DNA of 64,000 nucleotides from an uncultured Pseudomonadales bacterium. Its GTDB lineage: Bacteria; Patescibacteriota; Microgenomatia; UBA1400; PJMF01. Location: positions 59,210 to 123,209 of the forward strand of contig CAZFRD010000001.1 in assembly GCA_964521215.1 (NCBI GenBank), given 5' to 3'. Of the stretch, positions 1,549-60,691 are shown in pieces (position 1 is the stretch's first letter; every line of letters starts with the position of its first letter). The position numbers were made by a program, and so were the translations under genes. The notes under the pieces were generated by a model. The model was given only the letters and a program-made list of their open reading frames with translations, was not told the origin of the DNA and ran no database searches.

Positions 1549-3549
1549 ATGACGGAAAATACGGGATCTCAATTTCTTGGTGAGCGTTATCCAAGACTTG
1601 CGAAAAGCTCAGAAGTTACTGCAGCAGTAGCACGAACGAAAGCTCGCACTGGAAAAACAATTATAAAAGATCCAGATGAAAGAATTCAAAATTATCTTGG
1701 CAGGTTTAGAGAAATTGTTGAACGCAGCGATCCGCAAGCAAAGGCTCGGGGAATTGTAGCTCTTAAAAAGATTCTAGTCGATCGGTATGTAGTACGAGTA
1801 GAAGATATTCCAAATAGTTATTGGCAGGCACAACTGCGAGTTGTGAGGAATCGAGGAGAATTTGGAGACTGGCAAAACTTACCAGAAGAAGAAGTACTAA
1901 AACTTAAACAAGAACATCTTGCTCAATCTAAAGAAGACCAACAAGGAAGTATCGAAGAATGGATTGATTATCTTGCGTCAGATAGATCTTCATATTTGCC
2001 TGACTATCTAAAATATTGGGTGTTTGCTGGAATGCTTAAGCTTGAAAGATATGAAAAAGCTGAAAAAAACCAACATGGAACAGTTATTAAGCAGGGAAGA
2101 TTTCCTGAGCGTCCTACAGGAAGGCAGCGCACAATTAAGATGTTTCCTGAAGTGAACGAAAGCGGACTCAAGTTCATCGCTTCTGCATACAAGCAACAAA
2201 CGGAAGGAAAAAATATTTACTGGGGATATAACCAGGATATTCCTGCAGATGTTAGACAAACTTTTCTTGACGCTCTTAAGAGGAAAGATTTCCGTGCAGC
2301 ATATGGATGGGTACAAGAACATATTCCTCCAATTACCGATGAAGAAATGCAAATAACAGAGGGCAGAAATTGTGGTTGGGTAACTTTTTCCAAAGATCTA
2401 GGTCATACAGGTCGAGATGTAGCAGTAACACTTGCGGGCAAGGGAACTGGCTGGTGCATTGCGGGCCGCGAAACCGCCCAAGGTAACTATCTAGATCAGG
2501 GAGCAAAACTTCACATATATTACACGCGCGACAAAGATGATAAACAAGCAAACCCTCGTGTAGGAATTGTAGAAATGGGAGGCAAGGTCACTGAGGTCAG
2601 AGGCATAGAATGGGAAGAAAATATTGACGATTATATTAAACCCACAGATGTGATCGAAAAAAAATTGAAAGAACTTCCTGGCGGTGAGGGATTTTTTGAA
2701 ACAGATGTAGATACTAAATATCTAACAGCCATTGATCAGAAGATGCATTGCAATGAGCCATTAAAAAGAGAAGAGTTAATTTTCCTTTATGAGATAGACA
2801 AACCTATTAAATATTTTGGCTACCAACGTGACCCTAGAATCGCTGAACTTCGGGCTCGACGGGATCCAATAGAGGATGCGCCTGTCGTTCTTGACTGTGA
2901 TCCAGGAGAGATTGCTTGGAATCGTCATGAGGTTTCTACTCATACCAAGGCATACATAGGGCCACTCTTCCCTGGAATTTTTGAAGAGTTTAGTGGTTTA
3001 GAACATATCTATACTTCTTTCCCTGAAGGAAAAATTACAGGAGATGAAGTAGTCATTGGTACTAAAGATAGGAAAGAGCTTCTAGAAGCCATGAAGAAGC
3101 AAGGAATTGATACTAGCACATATGCACAGGAAATGATTGAAAGTCCTGATTTTATGCCTACTCAAAGTCGCTTGAGTGGTATCCAAAGACTCTTTAAGGG
3201 AGAAGGATCGCAAACCGCTAAAACAGTTGATGTCATTCGATTAAAAGTGCGAGATTTTGGATTTACCAATTACCCCACCACTACTGAGTTGTTTGCCAAA
3301 GCAGAAGAGTTTGGCTTAGAACTCTGTCCAGCTGAAGTTGGTCCGCAATACCGTTTGCAACAAACTGACCAACCAATGAATGATTGGTTTTATATTGGCA
3401 TGAAACCGCTTGTCGCGTCCGGCGATCCTAGTGTGTTCACGCTCGGACGCTATGGCGATGGCCTGTGGCTCGACATCAGCTGGGCGAGACCAGACAGTCG
3501 TTGGCCTCTAGATGGCGAGTTTGTGTTTCGTTTTCGCAAGAATTCTTAG
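1549..3549 (+). CDS. DGR target protein (variable protein); VR occupies the C-terminal ~45 codons
   Basis: 666-aa ORF. Its 3' end (3405..3540) is a near-copy of a downstream repeat and differs almost only where the downstream copy has adenine. No obvious signal peptide, and the N-terminal region is not recognised. C-terminal tail reads ...MKPLVASGDPSVFTLGRYGDGLWLDISWARPDSRWPLDGEFVFRFRKNS. Confidence 0.7.
   Translation: MTENTGSQFLGERYPRLAKSSEVTAAVARTKARTGKTIIKDPDERIQNYLGRFREIVERSDPQAKARGIVALKKILVDRYVVRVEDIPNSYWQAQLRVVRNRGEFGDWQNLPEEEVLKLKQEHLAQSKEDQQGSIEEWIDYLASDRSSYLPDYLKYWVFAGMLKLERYEKAEKNQHGTVIKQGRFPERPTGRQRTIKMFPEVNESGLKFIASAYKQQTEGKNIYWGYNQDIPADVRQTFLDALKRKDFRAAYGWVQEHIPPITDEEMQITEGRNCGWVTFSKDLGHTGRDVAVTLAGKGTGWCIAGRETAQGNYLDQGAKLHIYYTRDKDDKQANPRVGIVEMGGKVTEVRGIEWEENIDDYIKPTDVIEKKLKELPGGEGFFETDVDTKYLTAIDQKMHCNEPLKREELIFLYEIDKPIKYFGYQRDPRIAELRARRDPIEDAPVVLDCDPGEIAWNRHEVSTHTKAYIGPLFPGIFEEFSGLEHIYTSFPEGKITGDEVVIGTKDRKELLEAMKKQGIDTSTYAQEMIESPDFMPTQSRLSGIQRLFKGEGSQTAKTVDVIRLKVRDFGFTNYPTTTELFAKAEEFGLELCPAEVGPQYRLQQTDQPMNDWFYIGMKPLVASGDPSVFTLGRYGDGLWLDISWARPDSRWPLDGEFVFRFRKNS
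3405..3540 (+). repeat. DGR variable repeat (VR)
   Basis: 136 nt aligned without gaps to 3906..4041. There are 21 mismatches; at 18 of them the TR base is A and the VR base is G, C or T. A fully conserved GC-containing 3' segment (gcgagtttgtgtttcgttttcg) is IMH-like. Confidence 0.8.
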
Positions 3550-3905
3550 TTGCTTGAATTCTTGAAAAAGTGACCCTTTGAATCTATAAAACTATGATAC
3601 TAAATTTTTAAAATTTTTTAGTCTGTTCGGGTTTATTTTGTCTTTTATTTCTATGTCTTTTGCAAATATACTGACAGATGATTGTGTTCTATTGGGTGGT
3701 CATGGCTACCTGAAACGCAGTTGGCATTTGTATATTGAGATCATAAATGGAGAAATTCTTTTTGTGGAGGGAATATAATTTGTCTATAATAAAAAGAAAA
3801 CTTGGTGTGTCGTGCTTGTGGATTTCTATCCCAAATAAATAACAGCCTAATATTTCTTTTCGTCATATTGGCAGTGACTCTAGATGGCACTTCACACATA
3901 GTTTC

Positions 3906-4041
3906 ACCGCTTGTCGCGTCCGGCAATCCTAATGTATTCAAACTCGAACACAATAGCAATGGCCTGTGGCTCAACAACAACTGGGCGAAACCAGACAATA
4001 ATTGGCTTCTAGCTCGCGAGTTTGTGTTTCGTTTTCGAAAG
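3906..4041 (+). repeat. DGR template repeat (TR), non-coding template
   Basis: The TR copy is rich in AAC/AAT codons (ctc aac aac aac tgg; aat cct aat; gac aat aat), a hallmark of DGR templates. It sits between the target gene and the RT gene. The tracked ORF 3802..4089 covering it is probably not a protein. Confidence 0.8.
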
Positions 4042-4056
4042 TACTTCTTTTCCGCA

Positions 4057-4446
4057 CTATTCGTTAGTGCGGTTTTTGTTTTGAGATAACTCTATGTTTT
4101 TTCTCCACCCACCAAGCATTTTCCCCACATCGTTTAATTTAAAAGCGATTTCCTCATATTGTTTATGAGACAGTAATTTAGCTTCCCACGCTATTGACAG
4201 TAAAAATTTAAGTGAATCAAGTAAAATAACACAGCCTGTTACCTTTTTATATTTTGCTTCCTTTTCAGTAAAATAAGATGCATATGTTTTTTCCAATAGA
4301 TCTAAAAAGGTATTTTCTATTCTGGCACCTATTGTGTAGCGTGCTCCTTTAGGCATATGAGGAACAAATCGCAACCAAATCAAATAAGCCTCTTTGAGAT
4401 GGTAAACAACAGAGTTAGTGCTATAAGGAGTAGTCATTTTAATCAT
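4057..4446 (-). CDS. avd: Avd-like accessory variability determinant (four-helix-bundle, 23S rRNA IVS-protein family)
   Basis: About 130 aa. Its layout resembles Bordetella bAvd and the IVS-protein family: YHLKEAYLIWLRFVPHMPKGARYTIGARIENTFLDLL...LLDSLKFLLSIAWEAKLL...IAFKLNDVGKMLGGWRKN. It is encoded on the strand opposite to TR and RT. Start is ambiguous: TTG at 4485, or ATG at 4446 or 4437. Confidence 0.55.
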   Translation of the reverse strand: MIKMTTPYSTNSVVYHLKEAYLIWLRFVPHMPKGARYTIGARIENTFLDLLEKTYASYFTEKEAKYKKVTGCVILLDSLKFLLSIAWEAKLLSHKQYEEIAFKLNDVGKMLGGWRKNIELSQNKNRTNE

Positions 4447-5417
4447 GTCTATGACAATATCATCTCTTTTGATAATTTGCTCCAATCTTGGAAGGATTTT
4501 TTAAATGGAAAAAGAAAGCGCAAAGATGTCATCTTATTTTCCCTAAATTTGATGGATAACATTTTGCAACTTCATCAGGATCTCTTAAACAAAACCTATC
4601 ATCATGGTTTTTATCAGGCTTTAAAATCAATGATCCAAAACCAAGAGATATTCACAAAGCTGAGGTAAAGGACAGGCTAATTCATCACGCAATTTACAGG
4701 ATTCTGTATCCATATTTTGATAAAAAATTTATTTTTGATTCATATTCTTGTCGAAAAGGTAAAGGCACACATCGAGCAATTCAGCGTTTTGTAACATTTA
4801 GCAGAAAAGTTAGCAAAAACAATACCCGCACAGCCTGGGTGCTAAAGTGCGATATTCAAAAATTTTTTGCCAATATAGATCACGATCTGCTCAATCAAAT
4901 TTTAGCTCAGCACATTGATGATCCTGATGCACTTGAGCTATTAAGAGAGGTTATCGGCAGTTTTCGAATTAACCCGTGTGTGTCAGTTGGTTTACCACTG
5001 GGAAATTTAACAAGCCAACTTTTGATAAATATTTACATGAATGAATTTGATCAGTTTGCAAAGAGAACCTTAAAAGCAAAATACTACATCCGTTATGCTG
5101 ATGACTTTGTTTTTCTCCACGAAGACAAACACACTTTGGTTGCTATGGTTCCTCAAATCGAATCTTTTTTGAAGGACAAATTAAAATTGGCTCTTAATCA
5201 GCGCAAAGTCTCTATCAAGACACTTAACTCTGGTATCGATTTTTTAGGATGGGTTAATTTTCCTCATCATCGAGTATTGCGTACAACCACAAAAAGAAGA
5301 ATGTTTCGCAAATTACAAAAAAATCATAGCAGAGAGACTCTTGCGTCGTATTTAGGATTGCTAAGTCACGGCAATGCTTATAAATTAAGATGCAGCATAT
5401 TAAGCAACAATTTTTAG
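4357..5417 (+). CDS. DGR-type reverse transcriptase (frameshifted at ~4620; start uncertain)
   Basis: Two frames (4357..4668 and ~4590..5417) together align with the Bordetella Brt RT. Matching segments include ISFDNLLQSWKDFLNGKRKRK, YHHGFYQA|FKINDPKPRDIHKAEVKDRLIHHA, SYSCRKGKGTHRAIQRF, VGLPLGNLTSQLLINIYMNEFD, IRYADDFVFL and GIDFLGW. The frame change occurs in a T-run (gcTTTaaaa) that also forms a U_UUA_AAA heptamer. The alignment shows that no residues are lost across the junction. Possible starts are ATG 4357, ATG 4399 or TTG 4477; the first two overlap the avd 5' end. Confidence 0.85.
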
Positions 5418-11237: not shown

Positions 11238-12886
11238 AAAGCATAAAGTTTTTCTTGATACTCGCCGAACATGCGTTCGGTGGAAAAACGCTCGAATAGC
11301 TCGATCGATCCCTTCATCCGATTGACCCATTCTTCAGAAAATCCTTGATCGTTTTTTTGAAAATACATATTTTGAGCCTCTTGCAATTTTTCGTTGAGAC
11401 TAGTGGTAAGATCATCATGCTTGAGTATCCAGCCAAGATTATTCCAATCAACCTCGCTGGTCCACCCGTCTTGGACGGTAACTTGTAGTACGCCATTAGC
11501 AATGGCTTTCATGCCAGAAGTACCCGAGGCTTCCTTACCTTTGATGGGAGTGTTAAGCCAAATATCCGAACCCTTAGTCAAAAACTGAGCAATTTCGATA
11601 TTATAGTTCGGAATGAACAGGGCGTAGCCAGCTAGATCGGTAGAAAAATGTTGAATTACTTCTTTGAGCACATCTTTACTATATGAATCACCAAAATGGG
11701 CTTTTCCAGCGACGAGAAACTGGACCTCACGACCGTGTTGAGTAAAAATTCTACGCAGAGCTTCAATATCAGAGAAGAGAGAGCCAAGTTGTTTATAACC
11801 TGCTATCCGCCTTGCCCAGGTTACTACTAAGCGGTGGTGATCGTAACCAAAACCAGTAGTAGCTTGGACGAAGTCTCGTAATTGTTCTTTGAGTTGATAA
11901 TGTCGTTGCCAAAGTTGGTGTGAGTCGGTGGCGCTGGCTTTGATTTGACTATCTTGCCAGGTGGTTCGGTGTACGCCATTAGTAATATTTATCCAGTTGT
12001 AGTCTGGCCAGACTTGCTTACTCAGATCGGTGTGAACTTGGCTAACACCGCTGGCAATATGGGACACGTTAAGTGCAGCAGACGTCACAGAGAAGGAGTC
12101 GGGATTGCCAGCACTCCCCAGAGACAGCAGTTGCTGAGGACTAATTTGCATTTCTTTGGCATAGGGCTCAGCCAGAGGCAGGAGCGCTGATACTGGATAA
12201 GTCATATTGCCCGCCGACACCAGCGTATGATTGGTATAGACAATTTTATTTTTAACTAAACGGAGAGCGCTTTCAGCCACCACCTGGTGTTGTTTCATCA
12301 TGTCTAAAATTAGTTGCCAATGAGCAAAAACTGGTCGTCCTTCATTGAGGTGAAAAAGACGCGGGACAATACCCAATTCGGTCAATAGTTTGATGGCGCC
12401 AACCCCTTGCACAATTTCTTGTTTGAGTTGATAGTCGGTATCGCCAGTGTAAAGAAATTGAGTAATTTTTCGTAAATGAGGGGGATTTTGATCAGTGTCA
12501 GAATCAAGCAAATATAGAATAGTTTGTTCGGAAAAGGTTTTTTTCCAACAGCGGAGCCAAACTGATTCGGCTCCAACTTGGACTGAAATAAATAGTGGTT
12601 GGTCGCCATCCACGTAGACATGTTCCAGCCCGACGGCAACTGGGTCAAAAAGCCATTGTTCTTCTAGTTGTTCCCCGCTAGGCGTAATGGTTTGCTTCAT
12701 GTATTGACCTCGATAAAGCAAACCGACACCCACAAAAGGCAAATGATTGTCTGCAGCCTGCTTCATAGTATCGCCTGCCAGAATGCCTAATCCACCAGCG
12801 TAAATGGGAATGGCGTGGTCAAAGCCAAATTCGGCACTCAAGTAGGCAATGGGTGTCTCCAGGACTGGTAAGTTGGCAGGCAGCAT
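11234..12886 (-). CDS. glgP: alpha-glucan (glycogen/maltodextrin) phosphorylase, GT35
   Basis: N-terminus MLPANLPVLETPIAYLSAEFGFDHAIPIYAGGLGILAGDTMKQAADNHLPFVGVGLLYRGQY. The pyridoxal-phosphate region contains EASGTSGMK. The C-terminus ends FSTERMFGEYQEKLY. Confidence 0.8.
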   Translation of the reverse strand: MLPANLPVLETPIAYLSAEFGFDHAIPIYAGGLGILAGDTMKQAADNHLPFVGVGLLYRGQYMKQTITPSGEQLEEQWLFDPVAVGLEHVYVDGDQPLFISVQVGAESVWLRCWKKTFSEQTILYLLDSDTDQNPPHLRKITQFLYTGDTDYQLKQEIVQGVGAIKLLTELGIVPRLFHLNEGRPVFAHWQLILDMMKQHQVVAESALRLVKNKIVYTNHTLVSAGNMTYPVSALLPLAEPYAKEMQISPQQLLSLGSAGNPDSFSVTSAALNVSHIASGVSQVHTDLSKQVWPDYNWINITNGVHRTTWQDSQIKASATDSHQLWQRHYQLKEQLRDFVQATTGFGYDHHRLVVTWARRIAGYKQLGSLFSDIEALRRIFTQHGREVQFLVAGKAHFGDSYSKDVLKEVIQHFSTDLAGYALFIPNYNIEIAQFLTKGSDIWLNTPIKGKEASGTSGMKAIANGVLQVTVQDGWTSEVDWNNLGWILKHDDLTTSLNEKLQEAQNMYFQKNDQGFSEEWVNRMKGSIELFERFSTERMFGEYQEKLYAL

Positions 12887-14008: not shown

Positions 14009-14030
14009 TCTGCTGATGGAGTTGTTTACA

Positions 14031-15242
14031 CTAAACAGTAAATTGACCATCAGCGTATATTACTTTTGATGTTCCATCGGTCAGCGTGGCAGTAACGGTA
14101 CGATTGGTAGTGCTAATAATGTCGGTGTGCTCTGGCGAGTCGTTGAAACCAAGCTTTTCCCAATCAGCACTAGTTAAACTGGCTTTTTCGCCACGCAGGC
14201 AATCTTTGTAAGCCATACCAATCGCCACATGGGTGTTCCCTTCTGGACCTCCTAGGTTTTCATCATAGAGAGTTTCGGCCATAAAATGAGTAATTCTAGA
14301 TAGGCGCTTATCAGTCAAAGAAAATTCACCCAATTTATTAGCATTTGGACTTTTGATCATTGTCTGCAGCAATGAGTCGCCCTTAGTGGCGGTAGCTTTG
14401 GTGATAATTCCATCTTTAAAGTGAAGTTCAATGCCCTCGAGAATATTGCCGTAGCGGTAGAGTGGTTGATTTAAACGGATATGGCCTTGGGTGCCTCGCC
14501 AATCTGGACTAGTGAATAGCTCGAAGCTAGGTATATTTCGATCCGCGCCACCCTTCCATTGGCGGTTGGCGCCAAGCTGGATGTGCAAATCAACATCTGG
14601 ACCGGTAATGTGAACCTGTTCAATCGATAATGCGTTGAGCTTGTCACGCAGTTCTTGTTGTAACCGTTTCACCTTTCGCCACTCTTCAATGGGATCCGCC
14701 TGATCGAGAAAACAAGCTTTGATAATTTGTTGCCAGTAGTCTTCTAGACTCAAGCCAACGATTTTCGCTTTTGCCTCCACCCCCCAAAGTGCTAGGGTCC
14801 AGGTAAACTTGCCCTGAATTTCCTTATCCATCAACCAATCTCGGTAGGGTTTTTGAGTGTTGCGAGCCAACATAATGGAGTCAGGATCGATATCCTTCAA
14901 TTCTTCGGGATAGGGATCGGCCAAAATGGCAATTGAATGGTCGATTAAGTCGGCGCGAGTCTGCAGATGTTTTTCTGGGAAAAAAGTCAGTTGCTCTTTT
15001 GAAGCAATTGAATAGTAATCCTTGTCGAAACCAGTGGGTAGCAGGCGCATCAGCACATGTGCGCCAGCCTTGAGTAATGTGTTCTGCAAAGCTAGGGCTA
15101 GTGGTTTGGCCACATCGGGAACTAAACATTGAACCACCTCGCCTTCATTGATACCCTCAGTTTGGCCTAAGGCAAAATGCACCAATACAGCTGCATATTT
15201 ATCTAGTATTTCCGCTGGTGGAGAATAAATGCTATCAGACAT
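14031..15242 (-). CDS. M29-family aminopeptidase (AmpS/PepS-like)
   Basis: About 400 aa; likely start MSDSIYSPPAEILDKYAAVLV. The C-terminal half contains ...GANRQWKGGADRNIPSFELFTSP...GEFSLTDKRLSRITHFMAETLYDENLGGPEGNTHVAIG.... Confidence 0.65.
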   Translation of the reverse strand: MSDSIYSPPAEILDKYAAVLVHFALGQTEGINEGEVVQCLVPDVAKPLALALQNTLLKAGAHVLMRLLPTGFDKDYYSIASKEQLTFFPEKHLQTRADLIDHSIAILADPYPEELKDIDPDSIMLARNTQKPYRDWLMDKEIQGKFTWTLALWGVEAKAKIVGLSLEDYWQQIIKACFLDQADPIEEWRKVKRLQQELRDKLNALSIEQVHITGPDVDLHIQLGANRQWKGGADRNIPSFELFTSPDWRGTQGHIRLNQPLYRYGNILEGIELHFKDGIITKATATKGDSLLQTMIKSPNANKLGEFSLTDKRLSRITHFMAETLYDENLGGPEGNTHVAIGMAYKDCLRGEKASLTSADWEKLGFNDSPEHTDIISTTNRTVTATLTDGTSKVIYADGQFTV

Positions 15243-24563: not shown

Positions 24564-24579
24564 ACCGTTCCAAAATGGT
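24564..24579 (+). terminator. post-trmD hairpin accgtt-ccaa-aatggt followed by a T-rich segment
   Basis: Stem and CCAA loop with a G-U wobble pair. The ccgttccaaaa motif is shared with the post-gene hairpin at 38209..38224. Confidence 0.35.
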
Positions 24580-24610
24580 TATTTGTCTAAAGATCACACT
24601 ACACAAAATA

Positions 24611-24678
24611 AAAACATAGTTTAGTGTAAAGCACAGCCCTGTCTGGAGTCATGCTCTACACTAAGCTATCAAATAAAA
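24611..24678. repeat. intergenic imperfect-palindromic element, copy 1
   Basis: aaaacatagTTTAGTGTAAAGCACagccctgtctggagtcATGCTctacactaagctATCAAATAAAA. A 13-bp stem (ttagtgtaaagca / tgctctacactaa) encloses a 17-nt loop. A second copy is at 38309..38380. Confidence 0.6.
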
Positions 24679-24838
24679 CTAAGTAGTCGTGTTGTTAAAA
24701 AAATAACTTCACTGCACGAAACGATTGGCTGATTTAAGGTAATTATTTTGTAACGGTCTCTTTAAATAGGAGACTATTCTGAGCACCCATTTACTGGTAG
24801 AGGGACCCTTGGTGGAAAACCGATTGGCGGCAGGATGG

Positions 24839-25732
24839 TTAAAGCTCGCTGACTGTTTTTGATAAGCAGTCAACAATCTTGTCTGGGGTTAGTTTGAGAA
24901 TATTCCAAATCAAAGTGGAATCTAGTGCGGTGTGGGCTTGGTAAGGTCGGTTGGTAGTTTTTAAATAATCAGACAAACTTCCTTTTTTGATTTCTCCCCC
25001 ATAATTCATTAATTGAGCGATGGTTGAGGAAAAATCAAAATCAGTCCAAGTTTCATTATTAGTGGCGTGATACAGTCCGGTTACCTTATTTTCAATTACA
25101 CCCCGGATGATTTTCGATAAACTATCGATATAGGTTGGGCCAAAGGTATGATCGGTGAATTGGGGATAAAGCGTGTTTTGTCGTAACCCCTCGATCACTC
25201 GATGAGCCGTATCAAGTTTGCTAAATGCATCCGGGCGAAAAGGCTGATCGATCCTCAAGATTGTATGTCTGGGATTGATTTCCCGAATCGCTTCCTCTGC
25301 CAAAAGTTTGGTTTGACCATACCACTCAATGGGTCGAGGCTGATCAGACTCGACATAGGGAGTAGTTTTTTCTCCATCAAAAACATAGGCGGTTGATAAA
25401 TGAATGAGGTGAATGTTTTGCTCTTGGCAGACTTGGGCAATATTTTTCGTACCTAACACATTAACCTGGTAACACAATCCGTTTTTGTCACCTGTTTGTT
25501 CCCAGGCCGCAGTCACATTGGTAAAAGCGGCAAAATGTAACAAGGCTATTGGTTGTAAGTTGATGAGCGAGGCTCGAGTTGAGTCAATGTTGGTAATATC
25601 AACCGGGCGAGTTGGTTCGGCAATATCAAAATTAATAAATGAAAAATTGTTTTTCAGTTGAGAGACAAGCCGAGAGCCGACCAAACCATTTAAGCCCGTG
25701 CCAACAATTGTAGGTAACTTATTTTGGTTCAT
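24839..25732 (-). CDS. rfbD: dTDP-4-dehydrorhamnose reductase
   Basis: IVGTGLNGLVGSRL (Rossmann fold) ... YGQTKLLAEEAI (YxxxK). The likely start is MNQNKLPTIVG; the longer tracked ORF runs into rfbC. Confidence 0.8.
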   Translation of the reverse strand: MNQNKLPTIVGTGLNGLVGSRLVSQLKNNFSFINFDIAEPTRPVDITNIDSTRASLINLQPIALLHFAAFTNVTAAWEQTGDKNGLCYQVNVLGTKNIAQVCQEQNIHLIHLSTAYVFDGEKTTPYVESDQPRPIEWYGQTKLLAEEAIREINPRHTILRIDQPFRPDAFSKLDTAHRVIEGLRQNTLYPQFTDHTFGPTYIDSLSKIIRGVIENKVTGLYHATNNETWTDFDFSSTIAQLMNYGGEIKKGSLSDYLKTTNRPYQAHTALDSTLIWNILKLTPDKIVDCLSKTVSEL

Positions 25733-36601: not shown

Positions 36602-38193
36602 AAAACAAGCAATCATTAATGTTATTGTTCTTAGTCTTGTTAGCTGGAATAATTAGATTTTGGCAACTTGGTACCATACCTTCGGGACCCAACTGGGATG
36701 AAGCTGCGATTGGCTACAATGGCTGGTCGGTTTGGCAGACCAGAAGAGACGAGTGGTTGGAAAAATTGCCAACTTCTTTTCGCTCTTTTGGAGACTACAA
36801 AGCTCCGTTAGCGATATATCTTAATGGTTTGTTTACCTCACTTTTTGGATTAGAAACATGGGTAATTAGATTGCCTTTTGCCTTATCGGGAGTAATTGGT
36901 GTGGTGGGATTTTATTTTCTACTCAAGTCAATTTTTAACTTTTCACCCAAAGGGAGTACTTATCTTTCTTCTGCCTGGTTAGCGTTACTGGGTACTGGAA
37001 TGCTCACGATCTCTCCGTGGCATATTTTATTTACTCGAGCTGGTTTTGAAAGCGGCCTAGCCCTAAGCGAAGTCGTCTGGGCCACAACTTTGTTTTTATC
37101 TTCATTACAGCTGAAAAAGAAAAACTGGCAATACTTTTGCTGGCAAATTACTGCTGGAATACTATTTGCCAGCACTTTTTATACTTACCACAGCGCCAAA
37201 GTGATGGTACCACTTTTTCTTTCACTTTTATTTTTATTGCTCAGCCGCAAAAAGTTGATTGCAATCAAACAGGTTGTGATTTTTTCAGCCGGCGTGCTCA
37301 TCTTAATCATTCCATTTTTAATCGACTCATTATTGGGTGAGGGTCTCACTCGGGCTAATGTCACTATCTTCGCTCATACCCAATCATTGGCTTATCTTCC
37401 ACTATTATTGATTAAAAATTTGCTGGCTCACCTCAGTCTCTCGTTTCTCTTATTGGGTAAAGCTGACTCAATTCGTCACTCAATTGGTACGATGGGAGTA
37501 TTGTTTCCCACCACTGCATTTTTATTCGCCTTAGGATTGGTGGCAAGATACAAAAAAAACTATATATTTATTTGGTCTTTCGCCACAATTTGGGTTGTAG
37601 CGGGATTGGCACCCGCCATCATTGGGATTGAAGTCCCTCATCCCAATCGTGCCTTACTCGCCCTGCCAGGTTTCTTACTTTTTGCCTTACTGGGAATTGA
37701 CTTGATAACTGAAAACATCTCAAAACATACACGTCAACCCGCCAAGTACCTCAAAATATTTATTGCTAGTTTGGTCATTATTAACATCATTCAAGCTAGT
37801 TATTTTTTATCTCAATATTTTGGCGTTTATGCCAAGCAATCTAGCCCATATTTTCAAGATGGTTACCGGGAAATGTTTACTGAAGTTTGGTCTTACTACG
37901 ATGGTAAAGATGGTCGGCATTCTGTTGATCAAATTGTTATCACGAGCGAATATGGTCAACCGTATATTTACGCTCTTTTAACCAGGAAAATTTCCACTTT
38001 TCAGTACCACAATGGCGCATTGATCAACTTTATTTTCCCCGATGTAGTCCAGTTAAGCGATCTTGATCGGCCCAATGCTTTGATTGTAGCTGGTGAAAAA
38101 AGTGATCTAGTTAATCGCACGCAAGCTTTTAAAGTGATATATACCAAAGACGGTAAACCAAGATTTTGGTTGTTTGATACCGACCAACTTTGA
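36598..38193 (+). CDS. GT-C glycosyltransferase, GT39/PMT-ArnT-like (paralog 1 of 5)
   Basis: IIRFWQLGTIPSGPNWDEAAIGYNGWSV...FGDYKAPLAIYLNGLFTSLFGLETWVIRLPFALSGV, followed by about 11 transmembrane helices. Confidence 0.75.
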   Translation: MKNKQSLMLLFLVLLAGIIRFWQLGTIPSGPNWDEAAIGYNGWSVWQTRRDEWLEKLPTSFRSFGDYKAPLAIYLNGLFTSLFGLETWVIRLPFALSGVIGVVGFYFLLKSIFNFSPKGSTYLSSAWLALLGTGMLTISPWHILFTRAGFESGLALSEVVWATTLFLSSLQLKKKNWQYFCWQITAGILFASTFYTYHSAKVMVPLFLSLLFLLLSRKKLIAIKQVVIFSAGVLILIIPFLIDSLLGEGLTRANVTIFAHTQSLAYLPLLLIKNLLAHLSLSFLLLGKADSIRHSIGTMGVLFPTTAFLFALGLVARYKKNYIFIWSFATIWVVAGLAPAIIGIEVPHPNRALLALPGFLLFALLGIDLITENISKHTRQPAKYLKIFIASLVIINIIQASYFLSQYFGVYAKQSSPYFQDGYREMFTEVWSYYDGKDGRHSVDQIVITSEYGQPYIYALLTRKISTFQYHNGALINFIFPDVVQLSDLDRPNALIVAGEKSDLVNRTQAFKVIYTKDGKPRFWLFDTDQL

Positions 38194-38233
38194 TGTTTCA
38201 AAGTCGGAGCCGTTCCAAAACGATCTTTTTTTT
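38180..38233 (+). terminator. hairpin spanning the stop codon plus a ccgttccaaaacg hairpin and T8 tract
   Basis: ccgac-caa-ctttga-tgtt-tcaaag-tcgg, then gagccgttccaaaacgatc followed by tttttttt. Confidence 0.5.
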
Positions 38234-38308
38234 GATTCTCGATGAGAATATTTTACCCAAAAATCACAACTGTATTTTTATTAACATTTGAGAAACACTC
38301 TACTAATA

Positions 38309-38380
38309 AAAAATATGGTTTAGTGTAAAGCACGTCTCCAGACGGGGCCATGCTTTAGTGTAAACCCCCATCAAATAAAA
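38309..38380. repeat. intergenic imperfect-palindromic element, copy 2
   Basis: aaaatatggTTTAGTGTAAAGCACgtctccagacggggccATGCTttagtgtaaacccccATCAAATAAAA. The central 16 nt are the reverse complement of the copy-1 centre, while the outer flanks are in direct orientation. Confidence 0.6.
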
Positions 38381-38513
38381 AGCACGTAGCTTGGGGTAGC
38401 AATTAGCGATACTTCATAAGTCAGTTCAATAGTTTGCAGAACCATTAGTCTTTTTCTAGGATTTCTTTCTAATCAAACAAAGAAAATAACCGTTGGGAAT
38501 GGTATCCAAAAAG

Positions 38514-40058
38514 TTATTCGATCAAAAAATCACTACCACTTTCACCTTGATAAATATACCCAGTCGTATCTAGAGTAGCATCAGAGTTGCCGATCGTGCC
38601 AATAATGACTTGAAAGGGCACTCGACCAAAACGATGACTTTGTTGTTGGTATTGCGAATCGAGCTTAAAAAGAGCTACCTTGGAGTAAGCTAATGAATGC
38701 CGACAGGCAGGGAAGATATCCCAAGCGCAGATCTCTCGATTGTTACAGATATCAACCACCGTGGTGGCTGTTTCATCAATGGTTAAAGTAGAATATTGTT
38801 TAACGCCAAAAAACACATTATTGATAAAATCATCATCGTGGAAAATAAAGCGAATATTTTGCCCAGGTGATTTGGCTTGAATAAACTCAATTGTACTTTG
38901 TAACTCTGCCAAATCGTTATAGCTATGCCATTGACTAATATAGATTCCCGAAGAAAAAAACATCAAGCCAAATATGCTGAGAATGACAAACTTGGAGCGA
39001 GTGGCTGACATTAAACTCGCCAGAAAGACAAAAGGTAAAAAGAAAAGGGTGCTGAAAAAATAATCCAACTTATCTCCCCTGAAAACTCTGAGCATTATAA
39101 AAATACTGAAAAAATAGAACAAGATTATTATAAAAGAAAGATTCTTAGTTTTCCGATAATGTGCAATCAGGGAAAAGATTCCACCAAAGTAAATAGAGAG
39201 ACCAAAAATTGAATAAAGAGTCTCTTTGCCGAATAATACTCGGTCAAAAAATGCCGGAAAGTAGGTGAAAACATATGTTGGCTTAGAGATTCGTTCAAAA
39301 TACCTCGAATGTTCTTGAGTAAAGTAGTTCAATATCGCTCGGGAGTTGGAAAAATTAGAAGTAATTTCCGCATAGAAATATGGCAGTAAGATAAGAGACA
39401 TTATGATTATGCCACTCGCCCAAAATAGTAGTAGTCGCTGAGAAAAATTGTTTTTGATAGAGTAAATGAAACAAAAAGCAAGCAGGGGTAGTAAGACAGC
39501 AGCTTGATAATGAAACTGAAAAGCGACAATAAATGAAAAACAAGCTATTGGAATAAACCACAGCTGATGGTATTTAACTACTCGGATAGATGAATAGACA
39601 AGAAGCAAAGAGAAAAAAGGAATCATGTTGGGATTCCAGGCCGTCGTACCATACTGCAGGGGAATTGGTGCCACGATATATAACAAACTAGATAATGTTG
39701 CTAACTTGATACCAAATAATTCTTTAATAATCAGAAATAATAAGACCGGACTTAAGGCTTCAACTATGGTCACAACCCACTTCATGACCAGAGGATCATT
39801 GTTGGTGAATAGCGAAAAGATCACATGAATTTGGTAATAAAGTGGAGGCAAATAGAAATTGCCTATGCCCACTTTTGGCCCATAGTCAACTATGATCTGA
39901 TCAAATTTTATTCGTTGACTCATAAGCCATGAGTCTCGAGCAACATCTTGTCCAAACGAAATATGGGTAGAGGAGAAAATCAGGCGGGTGCTCAGACTGA
40001 GAATCAAGATGAGAAGGACTACTAGTGTATTACTGGTCTTGAGCTTGCTATGATACAT
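38514..40058 (-). CDS. polytopic membrane protein, GT-C-like candidate (unnamed family with D-x-x-R-D...WNP motifs)
   Basis: FGQDVARDSWLM...TAWNPNMIPFFSLLL with about 12 transmembrane helices. Related to 51171..52883 and 52904..54319. It is the only minus-strand gene inside the GT39 array. Confidence 0.45.
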   Translation of the reverse strand: MYHSKLKTSNTLVVLLILILSLSTRLIFSSTHISFGQDVARDSWLMSQRIKFDQIIVDYGPKVGIGNFYLPPLYYQIHVIFSLFTNNDPLVMKWVVTIVEALSPVLLFLIIKELFGIKLATLSSLLYIVAPIPLQYGTTAWNPNMIPFFSLLLVYSSIRVVKYHQLWFIPIACFSFIVAFQFHYQAAVLLPLLAFCFIYSIKNNFSQRLLLFWASGIIIMSLILLPYFYAEITSNFSNSRAILNYFTQEHSRYFERISKPTYVFTYFPAFFDRVLFGKETLYSIFGLSIYFGGIFSLIAHYRKTKNLSFIIILFYFFSIFIMLRVFRGDKLDYFFSTLFFLPFVFLASLMSATRSKFVILSIFGLMFFSSGIYISQWHSYNDLAELQSTIEFIQAKSPGQNIRFIFHDDDFINNVFFGVKQYSTLTIDETATTVVDICNNREICAWDIFPACRHSLAYSKVALFKLDSQYQQQSHRFGRVPFQVIIGTIGNSDATLDTTGYIYQGESGSDFLIE

Positions 40059-57474: not shown

Positions 57475-57780
57475 ATGTCAACCGATTTCACTTCTTCAAA
57501 TCCGCCACAGACCGTTATCCAGGCTCTATGGTCGGCAGACTTAAACGCATTAGATTTGGCAAAACACAAAAAATACATCGTTCATCAAGTTCTACAGTTT
57601 GGAGATTTACAAGCAATAGCCTGGCTATTTTCAGTTTATGGAAAAACGATAGTTAAAAACCTGTTTGTTGCTCAAGCAGAAAAAGTCTATACGCCTCGAT
57701 CATTTAATTATATAACCAAATATGTTTTGGGTCTTGTTCCAGATTCTTTAAATCAAAAGTTGTATGTTTCAAATATTTAA
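57475..57780 (+). CDS. hypothetical small protein, possible antitoxin partner of the downstream AbiEii-like gene
   Basis: 101-aa ORF overlapping the next gene's start by 17 nt. No family recognised. Confidence 0.3.
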   Translation: MSTDFTSSNPPQTVIQALWSADLNALDLAKHKKYIVHQVLQFGDLQAIAWLFSVYGKTIVKNLFVAQAEKVYTPRSFNYITKYVLGLVPDSLNQKLYVSNI

Positions 57781-58417
57781 ACAGGCAATTACCGATCAAC
57801 ACGAACAAGTCATGTTCCAACTTGCCAACTTGTTTGACGGCCAAATACTCATTGGGGGAACAGGTTTAGCCTTACAAATAGGGCATCGCAAATCGGAGGA
57901 TTTAGATTATGTAATTAAACAACCAGTTGCCGAAAATATCACTTCGTTGCTTACTATAGCTACGGGTGCAAGTCAATGGCAACACCAGATGCAAAATTCT
58001 CAACAATATACTGGTTTTTGCTCTGGAATCAAAGTGACTTTTTTTCACGATAATGTTCAGTTTCTGCATCCAACTCACGAATTCGCTGGAAACCAAATTG
58101 CCGATATATCAGATATCTTTTCCTCAAAACTATTCACCATTAGTAGAAGAGCGGTATGGAGAGACTATGTTGATATAGCAGTACTTCTCGATAAAGAACT
58201 ACTATCACTGAAGGATGGAATTGTAGATGCAAAAATTCGCCACCAGGTTGATGAAAAATGGATTCTTGAGCCTCTGACCTATTTTGAGGATATAACCTAC
58301 GCTCCAATTGATTATTTGGAAAAGTCATATTCAGATGCGGAAATCAGAAATATTTTGGAGACTGAAGCTATGCAATACACTGATTTAAGATTATCATTAG
58401 CAAGTTTTGAGACTTAA
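57764..58417 (+). CDS. nucleotidyltransferase, AbiEii/AbiGii-like (short form)
   Basis: LIGGTGLALQIGHRKSEDLDYV resembles the GGTAL...R.SEDLDF motif of DUF1814/AbiEii. Confidence 0.45.
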   Translation: MFQIFKQAITDQHEQVMFQLANLFDGQILIGGTGLALQIGHRKSEDLDYVIKQPVAENITSLLTIATGASQWQHQMQNSQQYTGFCSGIKVTFFHDNVQFLHPTHEFAGNQIADISDIFSSKLFTISRRAVWRDYVDIAVLLDKELLSLKDGIVDAKIRHQVDEKWILEPLTYFEDITYAPIDYLEKSYSDAEIRNILETEAMQYTDLRLSLASFET

Positions 58418-59220: not shown

Positions 59221-59877
59221 ATGAGTAGTATTACGCAAATGAAAGACACTTCAATCGTTTCCCAAAAGCCCTACCTAACCAGGCCGGAGTTGGGTTTGTT
59301 GTGGAGCAAAACTGGTCGTAATTTAGATAAATCAATCTTGAGTGCACTCAATAAAAAGGAGTTAATTGCACTAAAAAAAGGCATGTACGTATTTGCTAAT
59401 AGAATAAATTTGAATGACCAAAATCATACAGAGTTTATTGCCAATTCGCTTTGTTATCCTTCATATTTATCTTTAGAATACATTCTCCAATTAGAGAAAG
59501 TTATACCAGAATCGATTTTCGTGATGACGTCAATTACTGTTGGAAAAACCATCTCCTACACCAACGCCCTAGGTTCTTTTCAGTATCGATCAATTAAGCC
59601 AACCTTATTTATTGGATTCGCCAGGACTGACTACCTACAAGACTACCAAATCAAGCGGGCGACGTTAGCCAAAGCCCTATTCGATTGGCTCTACTTACAG
59701 CCTTTTCCCCGATCATTGAGAGGTAAACTCCGGGTATTACGTGATGCTCGCCTGAATTACACCAGTATTACTCACTCAGATCTGGAAGAGCTAAAAAAGT
59801 ATATCAAGACTTCCCAGTCGTTTAAAATGACCCAATTGTTGCAAATCTTAGAAGAGGAGATAAATCATGTTGATTAA
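59221..59877 (+). CDS. abiEi: AbiEi-like antitoxin (type IV TA)
   Basis: The N-terminal domain has ...LTRPELGLLW...LIALKKGMYVF.... It overlaps the downstream AbiEii gene by 11 nt. Confidence 0.55.
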   Translation: MSSITQMKDTSIVSQKPYLTRPELGLLWSKTGRNLDKSILSALNKKELIALKKGMYVFANRINLNDQNHTEFIANSLCYPSYLSLEYILQLEKVIPESIFVMTSITVGKTISYTNALGSFQYRSIKPTLFIGFARTDYLQDYQIKRATLAKALFDWLYLQPFPRSLRGKLRVLRDARLNYTSITHSDLEELKKYIKTSQSFKMTQLLQILEEEINHVD

Positions 59878-60691
59878 TGCCTTACAACAGGTGGTTGACG
59901 ATAATCGTCACCAGCCTTTTTTATACCAAAGAAACCTGCTCAAAGAAACTATTCAGGCTTACATTCTAAATTTTGTCTACTCCTCAGCCTATGCTGAGCG
60001 TTTCCTTTTCAAGGGTGGCACCTGTCTCAGGTTTTGCTTCGATCTACCTCGCTTATCAGAAGATCTGGATTTTGATGTAGTAGACCTAGTTGATGATGAC
60101 TATCAGAACTTAGTCGATGATTTAGCTGAATATATTCTTAAAAAACTTCGGTATGAACAAATGAACAGCTCGATCAAAGGTAAAAATAGAATCATTTACT
60201 TACAATTTCCCGTTTTAGCCAAGCTTGGTCTAAGTTCTGATTTGGCGACTCATTCAGACCAAGTTTTACACGTCAGGATTGACTTAGCGCCAATCAGGGG
60301 TCAGGGATTTACTCAAGAAGTGTCTCTGCAATCCACACCTGATTTTGCCTTTTTAATTCGTCGCTATGGTCTAGCTGATTTGTTTGCTGGTAAAGTAGCG
60401 GCTGTTTTGACCAGAGAAACTCTGGAAGCGGGGGTGATAGAGCCTAGATTTAAAGGTAGGGACTTTTTTGATATTTGGTGGCTACAATCAAAAGGAGTGG
60501 AATGGAATGAAAAATATCTAGAGTCGCTGGTTGGTGTGACTTCGCCAGCTGAGATCAAATCAGCTCTAAACGCCAAAATTATACAGGCCGCTGAAAAACA
60601 GCAGCTAATCAAGCAAGACCTACTACCATTCTTCTCCGAGCCCCAATTTGTGATCGATTTCGTCACCCATCTCGACCAGTTGCGGTTTTGA
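59867..60691 (+). CDS. abiEii: AbiEii/AbiGii nucleotidyltransferase toxin (DUF1814)
   Basis: FLFKGGTCLRFCFDLPRLSEDLDFDV. Confidence 0.75.
   Translation: MLINALQQVVDDNRHQPFLYQRNLLKETIQAYILNFVYSSAYAERFLFKGGTCLRFCFDLPRLSEDLDFDVVDLVDDDYQNLVDDLAEYILKKLRYEQMNSSIKGKNRIIYLQFPVLAKLGLSSDLATHSDQVLHVRIDLAPIRGQGFTQEVSLQSTPDFAFLIRRYGLADLFAGKVAAVLTRETLEAGVIEPRFKGRDFFDIWWLQSKGVEWNEKYLESLVGVTSPAEIKSALNAKIIQAAEKQQLIKQDLLPFFSEPQFVIDFVTHLDQLRF

Follow-up and report, generated by a model that had tools for sequence, protein, structure and literature searches.

What is the palindromic unit of about 84 nt that occurs twice in this DNA, each time between two convergent genes, and how did it come to lie there? Genomes of Patescibacteria (CPR) are very compact and are thought to be poor in repeats and mobile elements. 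In the window, by which we mean the whole 64,000-nt stretch analysed, most gaps between genes are shorter than 30 nt and the other convergent gaps range from -33 to 40 nt; the two gaps that hold the copies measure 278 and 320 nt. The best explanation, to which we give a probability of about 0.55, is that the unit belongs to an undescribed, clade-restricted, low-copy family of palindromic insertion elements of Woesebacteria-like Patescibacteria, which would supply a terminator and undergo hairpin-driven inversions. The evidence is set out below, from the two copies themselves to their relatives, the history of the two loci, the inversions and the candidate function.

Two copies of one unit

Both palindromes are present where the first-pass annotation had placed them, at 24611..24678 and 38309..38380, and the strings TTTAGTGTAAAGCAC, ATGCT and ATCAAATAAAA that it described as common to the two are found in both. 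The pairing that it proposed for the left arm of copy 1 also holds, with tgctctacactaa as the partner and one A·C mismatch. Local alignment of the two copies and a covariance model (CM R1), built on the common orientation of the family, delimit the full homologous units as 24596..24679 for copy 1 (about 84 nt) and 38295..38381 for copy 2, both on the minus strand. The gaps around them are convergent, as claimed: trmD and an rmlD-like gene converge on copy 1, and two PMT_2 glycosyltransferase genes converge on copy 2. In the Logan contigs L013 and L014, copy 2 is identical to the window.

With one copy as the query against the 64-kb window, nhmmer found the other at E = 5e-6 to 6e-5 and no further match better than E = 9. 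The local alignment (24596-24679 versus 38295-38381) confines the similarity to the ~84 nt of the units, so the copies are not parts of a longer duplication, and outside the units the two gaps are unrelated except for an 11-mer, CCGTTCCAAAA. That the window holds just two copies would suit an intergenic segment duplicated locally or a likeness due to chance. This explanation is practically untenable, refuted by homology E-values of 1e-5 to 1e-19 across the nhmmer and covariance-model searches, by the copies in other genomes and by the abrupt end of the likeness at ~84 nt.

The 11-mer merits separate description. As the first-pass annotation had noted, CCGTTCCAAAA follows plus-strand stop codons; the distance is 5 nt at 24565 and 17 nt at 38210. 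Exact matches to CCGTTNCAAAA in the window number three, at 24565-24575 and 38210-38220 on the plus strand and at 24746-24756 on the minus strand, each within ~100 nt of the hairpins; the loci of relatives contain zero occurrences. Both plus-strand genes have a small CCGTTCCAAAA hairpin of their own, followed by T-rich sequence. The one at 38210..38220 (plus strand), which lies past the stop of the 565-aa PMT gene and is followed by T8, is likely a weak terminator of that gene; the stretch that carries it is missing in the related locus L027. Directly past the trmD stop, ACCGTTCCAAAAT (24564..24576, plus strand) folds as a small hairpin with T-rich sequence next to it, and it is also the left arm of a 13-nt inverted repeat around copy 1, whose right arm is ACCGTTACAAAAT (24745..24757, minus strand). 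In a 22-nt convergent gap, a solitary 11-mer, TTTAGTGTAAA (14025-14035, minus strand), overlaps the stop of a gene for an M29 peptidase; it is probably a chance occurrence, since five of its bases are conserved stop or coding sequence in the related locus L021.

Hairpin architecture and a common orientation

The copy 1 hairpin (24616..24669, minus strand) reads ATAG, CTTAGTGTAGAGCAT, a 16-nt loop, GTGCTTTACACTAAA and CTAT, and its stem is almost perfectly paired, with a fold of -23.5 kcal/mol. The copy 2 hairpin (38315..38371, minus strand) folds at -18.5 kcal/mol and contains a GGG bulge and a 3x3 internal loop with CAC opposite CAC; the internal loop arises from a GTG in the right arm, where pairing would require CAC. 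ATRG/CYAT pairs lengthen the hairpin to 54-57 nt. Each arm, together with its neighbours, makes up a 19-bp quasi-palindrome, ATGSTTTA-NNN-TAAASCAT, and two such 19-bp sites enclose a conserved 16-nt centre, RRCCYYKTCTGGAGWC. The complete unit of ~85-90 nt thus consists of a T-rich flank (TATTTGATRG), the hairpin and a second T-rich flank (CYATGTTTTT...).

These flanks lie on one strand and define a common orientation of the family. The strand with TATTTGATRG before the hairpin and CYATGTTTTT after it is the minus strand in the window and the plus strand at two loci of other genomes, L005 and L008. CM R1 gives copy 1 a score of 91.9 bits on the minus strand versus 45.8 on the plus strand, and copy 2 a score of 87 versus 39.6; across four independent loci the scores are 87-97 bits on the common strand versus 40-54 on the opposite strand. 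The orientation of copy 1 is set by its T-rich flanks, which match the family on the minus strand, and its 16-nt loop is the reverse complement of the loop in copy 2 and in all other copies.

The centres of the arms vary in a similar manner. The two 3-nt centres are GTG/CAC, and hence paired, in copy 1; they are CAC/CAC in copy 2 and the related loci L026 and L027, and GTG/GTG in L005 and L008. The unpaired combinations give five of the seven copies a stem with a 3x3 internal loop. The centres flip as whole triplets (GTG/CAC) and the half-sites stay constant, a pattern of constant half-sites around freely oriented 3-nt centres that hints at DNA recognition by a symmetric protein. At the ends of the unit there is a weak outer pairing, ACACTA...TAGTGT, whose register varies among the copies; we rejected it as an outer stem or terminal repeat on account of this shift from copy to copy. 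The arm may resemble the terminal repeats of the IS6 family, at 10/16 positions.

Family members in other genomes

When 185,579 reference genomes were scanned with a gapped pattern, five stretches matched, approximately the number expected by chance; two of the five are real: L007, from a Ca. Woesebacteria MAG, and L005, on contig CAYNWG010000018 of GCA_964400865.1. A metagenome scan contributed L008, which is the L007 sequence with 12 kb of context. Identity is 85% between L005 and L008 (89 nt aligned) and 90.7% between L008 and copy 1 (43 nt aligned), and the element is the sole nucleotide similarity among the window, L005 and L008. At L008, the unit begins ~2 nt past the ruvB stop codon and the hairpin ~20 nt past it; at L005, a 374-aa gene that is unannotated ends ~90 nt before the hairpin, and a small winged-helix gene follows downstream. 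Neither locus is orthologous to those in the window, and the alignments show the unit at unrelated loci of different genomes. The first-pass annotation had proposed a search of related genomes, and would have given up its repeat family had there been only two copies within longer duplicated intergenic DNA. The search yields further members beyond the two in the window; these lie at non-orthologous loci, and the window loci are empty in relatives.

The family is of low copy number. The strict pattern, which matches all four good copies, finds the element in two GTDB representative genomes, once in each, so there are approximately 1-2 copies per genome. A covariance-model scan of ~230 kb, comprising the window and the related loci, detected no additional, weaker copies. 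Most of what the genome and metagenome pattern scans returned was chance matches (L003, L004, L006 and L009-L012). Among them, L011 contains at 2100-2320 a tandem repeat with a period of ~84 nt, on a metagenome contig of 29% GC; it has GCTTTAGTGTAAAGCATTAAT in common with the element, scores only 21 bits with the covariance model and is unrelated to it. Directly past the element in L008, at 12006-12045, is a second hairpin, CCCAC...GTGGG followed by T7, which leaves ruvB with two consecutive terminator-like structures.

The best named relatives of the TrmD encoded in the window are in Woesebacteria, Microgenomates and Patescibacteria. The assembly GCA_964400865.1 is titled 'uncultured Pseudomonadales bacterium', and its 41-kb contig L028, of ~42% GC, shares the gene order of the window, with PMT_2 63% and TrmD 67% identical. 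Given that gene order, the Pseudomonadales label looks wrong: the assembly, or at least its L005 and L028 contigs, is Patescibacteria-like.

Insertion between abutting genes

Relatives of the copy 1 locus, obtained via TrmD homologues, conserve the gene order and reveal several states of the trmD/rmlD junction. L018 (TrmD 88% identical) has a gap of 15 nt and is without the element; L019 (84%) has a gap of 111 nt with a decayed copy that scores 25.9 bits; L020 (82%) has an L019-like flank, and its contig ends within the left arm; and in L021-L025 (69%) there is no gap but a 28-nt overlap of the two genes. For the copy 2 locus, L026 (PMT_2 95% identical) has the PMT_2/PMT junction as in the window, L027 (84%) carries the element within a 194-nt gap, and in L028 and L029 (63%) the genes are 2 nt apart. 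The L028 contig, with its empty site, is from the same assembly as L005, which bears the element elsewhere. Since the gene pairs of these relatives abut or overlap, the ancestral state at both loci is a pair of abutting convergent genes, as is usual in the window, and the comparison shows the unit as inserted between formerly abutting gene ends. As judged from the same alignments, element-bearing DNA was gained in the clade of the window and later lost or degraded in some of its members. The orthologous copy in L019 is decayed, yet non-orthologous copies of distant genomes are well kept.

Presence and absence vary at orthologous sites, as is expected of a MITE. When filled sites (window, L027) are set against empty ones (L018, L028), no clean direct repeat is found that would represent a target-site duplication, and the T-rich flanks belong to the unit itself, because they are conserved between different loci. 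The ends of the neighbouring genes have changed as well. A 14-nt stretch of the copy 1 gap, GAGACTATTCTGAG (24762-24775), matches the 3' end of rmlD in L019; the rmlD of the window ends ~65 nt further, in unrelated sequence (24776-24852), and its C-terminus has therefore been remodelled. All relatives differ in the trmD C-terminus after ...QWK, and the L019 ORF extends into the flank of the element.

These observations bear on the claim of the first-pass annotation that the copies represent a REP/MITE-like family. The dispersed family stands, with members in other genomes at non-orthologous loci and with empty sites in relatives; the copy number is far from that of classical REP or MITE families, and a target-site duplication, a clear terminal inverted repeat and a transposase or RAYT gene were not found in the window or the fetched loci. 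Given the very low copy number, the 'mobile element' reading rests on only four or five loci. With respect to mechanism, the unit could have spread to other loci either by transposition in trans by an unseen enzyme or by horizontal transfer followed by recombination.

A Pfam scan of ~29 window ORFs and the gene tables of the fetched loci revealed no RAYT/Y1 transposase, other transposase or recombinase, and no terminal inverted repeat linked to a known IS was found. BLAST against phages and plasmids gave no match to the element; three pattern scans of viral contigs returned nothing or chance matches only, with covariance-model scores of zero, and viral scans with the arm sequences returned chance matches only. 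A literature search for the sequence string of the element produced one irrelevant match, and a search of the literature on MITEs in Patescibacteria found nothing relevant. Integron attC sites, dif/Xer sites, parS, CRISPR repeats, uptake-sequence pairs and retron msr/msd were considered, in comparisons drawn from general knowledge, and do not fit by anatomy and copy number. Two other systems are present in the window. A diversity-generating retroelement occupies 1549-5417, with a variable repeat (3405-3540) at the 3' end of the gene 1549-3549, a template repeat (3906-4041) that has A at 18 of the 21 mismatches between the two, and a reverse-transcriptase ORF (4839-5417; RVT_1, 5.7e-17). Two AbiEii-like nucleotidyltransferase toxin ORFs of the type IV toxin-antitoxin class (57764-58417 and 59867-60691) adjoin an ABC transporter pair.

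The insertion history also admits a simpler view, in which the unit is a selfish or neutral palindromic insert that has no host function, takes its T-rich flanks from target sequence or its duplication and survives only where it does no harm, between gene ends. Loss in L018, decay in L019 and ancestral gene pairs that required no spacer agree with this view, as do the T-rich sequence that precedes and follows the hairpin on a single strand, the similar flanks of copies 1 and 2 (TTTTATTTG/TTTTTATTTTG), which are what a target duplication would leave, and the absence of covariation in the shuffle test described below. However, the flanks are conserved across loci, as expected of unit sequence and not of local target DNA; an identity of 85-91% in genomes whose proteins are ~56-67% identical requires selection or recent transfer; and no transposase is seen. 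We regard a purely selfish or neutral insert as unlikely.

Inversion in place

A rearrangement is seen at the copy 2 locus. An intergenic block of ~200 nt that holds copy 2 (38268..38470) is reversed in L027 relative to the flanking genes: the block aligns window plus to L027 plus, with ~80% identity and a score of 242, and the gene ends around it align window plus to L027 minus only. The covariance model registers the same change of strand, with its match on the plus strand in L026 and on the minus strand in L027. Taken together, the alignments show a unit that was inverted in place.

The borders of this block may carry a trace of the event. A 16-nt imperfect inverted repeat has one arm at 38163..38178 (plus strand), formed by the 3'-terminal coding sequence of the 565-aa PMT gene, and its partner at 38472..38487 (minus strand), a degenerate inverted copy of the PMT 3' end that adjoins the end of the inverted block. 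The arms match at 14/16 positions, a score reached by 1/500 shuffles (p = 0.002), which suggests an inversion with a duplicated breakpoint. An inverted copy of the PMT_2 3' end to the left of the copy 2 block was not significant (p ~0.07). The inverted repeat around copy 1 (24564-24576 versus 24745-24757) matches at 12/13 positions, with a shuffle p of 0.01. L027 is without the bracketing repeat sequences.

Copy 1 has been rearranged on a smaller scale. Against L019, its loop aligns directly, whereas its flanks give the better alignment with the reverse complement, so that part of copy 1 is flipped relative to L019. The first asymmetric base of the copy 1 palindrome lies at 24619/24620, precisely where two Logan contigs from different runs, L001 and L002, end, and L020, from a related strain, ends within the left arm of a copy 1-type hairpin. 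Such contig ends could reflect mixed orientations in the population or an assembly artefact. Copy 2 is read through identically in SRR8893623 and SRR9038830, in a single orientation, and in a close relative from SRR25788007 it is read through in the same orientation with minor differences only.

Kelchner and Wendel reportedly described, in 1996, small inversions associated with hairpins in plastid non-coding DNA. Small inversions between short hairpin-forming inverted repeats are now established in plastids, where they measure 4-50 bp and are recurrent and homoplastic (PMC12371153). By analogy, we infer that inversion of the plastid type accounts most economically for the present case: the loop, the 3-nt centres and the ~200-nt block may all have been flipped by intrastrand template switching or by recombination within nested inverted repeats.

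A more elaborate alternative would make the unit a DNA-level module for protein binding and recombination that acts as an invertible switch, its 19-bp sites of 8-3-8 form (ATGSTTTA-NNN-TAAASCAT) being bound by a dimeric protein. Whole-triplet flips between constant half-sites look like a symmetrically read site, not an RNA stem; the copy 2 block is inverted between lineages, and the flank and loop orientations of copy 1 are discordant; both blocks are bracketed by inverted repeats, which would allow a one-way terminator to be flipped reversibly; three Logan contigs end at a copy 1-type hairpin or within it, in two cases exactly at the first asymmetric base; and the setting is a polysaccharide/glycosyltransferase cluster. 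Against these points, neither the window nor the fetched loci contain a recombinase, copy 2 gives no sign of a second orientation in the three runs just named, the bracketing repeats are short, modestly significant (p = 0.002 and 0.01) and missing from L027, and the contig breaks may have other causes, as L017 ends in a homopolymer. The invertible switch is, on balance, distinctly improbable.

Candidate function

The conserved flanks give the hairpin the appearance of a terminator on one strand. Directly 3' of the copy 1 hairpin lies the T-run GTTTTTATTTTG (24604..24615, minus strand), and directly 3' of the copy 2 hairpin lies ATTTTTTATTAG (38303..38314, minus strand), each with 8 T in 10 nt versus 1 on the other strand. 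We propose that GTTTTTATTTTG may be the U-tract for the rmlD-like gene at 24839-25732 and ATTTTTTATTAG that for the PMT_2 gene at 38514-40058. Throughout the family, hairpin energies on the common strand are -14 to -24 kcal/mol, and the 10 nt past the hairpin have 4-8 T on the common strand versus 1-2 on the other in 6/7 copies. The anatomy is that of an intrinsic terminator, a stable stem-loop and then a U-tract downstream of a gene; a simple scanner for the terminator consensus misses the element because it allows loops of 3-8 nt only. A compensatory change from ATAG/CTAT to ATGG/CCAT (n = 1) extends the stem right to the T-run. Because either orientation faces a gene in a convergent gap, only L005 and L008 test orientation, and at both loci the element points the same way as the gene upstream of it.

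According to the preferred reading, that of an insertion element which supplies a terminator, transcription of the T-run strand would yield a one-way Rho-independent terminator or a 3'-end stabiliser for the upstream gene. In the window, the genes served by the predicted terminator would be the minus-strand rmlD-like and PMT_2 genes. Several points stand against a terminator role. First, the hairpin is much longer than typical terminators. Second, the genome otherwise copes with convergent gaps of -33 to 40 nt. Third, the frequent 3x3 mismatch in the stem (5/7 copies) is not what a pure hairpin or RNA-stem function would favour. Base-pair covariation gave no signal, since 191/500 shuffles reach the observed score, and there is no sign of selection on one RNA strand, because G·U and A·C cells are balanced at 9 versus 10.

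The first-pass annotation had also suggested a small structured RNA gene, and the related possibility of a cis-regulatory RNA motif may be considered with it. An independently transcribed small regulatory RNA would account for the conservation of the sequence across genomes, including its 16-nt apical part, and for a stable hairpin with a terminator-like tail. Yet Rfam gave no match to the whole window at gathering thresholds and only noise at E <= 10, namely miRNA and snoRNA models of 6-18 bits against thresholds of 43-100, and no promoter-like site was found on the relevant strand. Moreover, the L008 unit begins ~2 nt past a stop codon, covariation and strand asymmetry are both absent, some close relatives have the element and others do not, and one orthologous locus carries it in reverse. 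The suggestion of an RNA gene is hence not borne out, and we consider a regulatory RNA of either kind very improbable.

Two bolder ideas may be considered. The element could be a reversible flip of a one-way terminator between convergent surface-glycosylation genes, in which two symmetric protein-binding sites within the terminator hairpin would be bracketed by short inverted repeats; alternatively, an undiscovered recombinase or transposase would target abutting gene ends, with the element as its non-autonomous partner. Either is a long shot, supported only by the repeats that bracket the blocks, by inversions between lineages and by the three contig breaks at copy 1-type hairpins. If the flip module were true, it would switch which gene terminates and which reads through antisense, and would amount to terminator-based phase variation in ultra-small CPR bacteria.

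An insertion element that supplies a terminator is of interest for several reasons. It indicates that terminator-like DNA of ~85-300 nt can insert between abutting CPR genes, be kept nearly unchanged across genomes whose proteins are ~60% identical, and be turned in place. It offers a concrete case for terminators possibly acquired as mobile modules, and a case of nested hairpin-driven inversions in bacteria. If the inversions are reversible, they would represent a new type of switch in organisms whose surface glycosylation probably mediates host attachment.

Relation to known elements

REPs measure 20-40 nt, number tens to hundreds per genome, carry a conserved head of the GTAG type and are accompanied by a RAYT gene. 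The element resembles the REP/BIME sequences of Proteobacteria in being an imperfect palindrome in intergenic DNA without target-site duplication. Those sequences typically sit at 3' ends and between convergent genes, as the element does, and their RNA hairpins can terminate or stabilise transcripts, the role predicted here. Unlike a REP, the element has a hairpin of 54-57 nt within an extragenic unit of ~85 nt, approximately 1-2 copies per genome (two in the 64 kb of the window, with no more in ~165 kb of related loci) and no RAYT/Y1 transposase seen near it.

The Neisseria Correia/NEMIS elements, the pneumococcal RUP and the enterobacterial ERIC/IRU share with the element a size of ~100 nt and an inverted-repeat architecture. 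As with bacterial MITEs generally, insertion is intergenic and presence or absence varies between close relatives, and some MITEs serve as terminators or RNA processing sites, comparable to the predicted role of the element. In contrast to MITEs, the element is without a target-site duplication and an identifiable parent IS, its copy number is very low, and its inverted repeats are central in the unit, not clearly terminal.

Like an intrinsic terminator, the element lies past a gene and combines, on one strand, a stable stem-loop with an adjacent U-tract. It differs in that the same ~85 nt recurs, whereas unrelated loci and genomes do not share the sequence of an ordinary terminator; such terminators also have shorter stems and loops of 3-8 nt, compared with a 16-nt centre and, in 5/7 copies, a 3x3 mismatch.

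As in the small inversions of plastids, the loop between short inverted repeats is reverse-complemented among homologues. The element differs in being a bacterial insertion element with three nested levels of inversion (the 3-nt centre, the 16-nt loop and the ~200-nt block), the largest of which is linked to an inverted duplicate of a gene 3' end. Invertons, such as the capsule promoters of Bacteroides, likewise consist of an intergenic segment with bracketing inverted repeats at a surface-polysaccharide locus, found in both orientations. Unlike invertons, the element has neither a recombinase gene in view nor an internal promoter, lies between convergent genes and is seen in its two orientations only between lineages, not within one population.

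We file the element in neither REP/BIME nor MITE, because its copy number does not fit and neither a target-site duplication nor a transposase or RAYT is in view. By architecture and behaviour it belongs with the REP/BIME sequences and with the MITEs that double as terminators. Its nested inversions are unusual, and the element is best called an addition to the small palindromic intergenic insertion elements, none of which we found described in its phylum.
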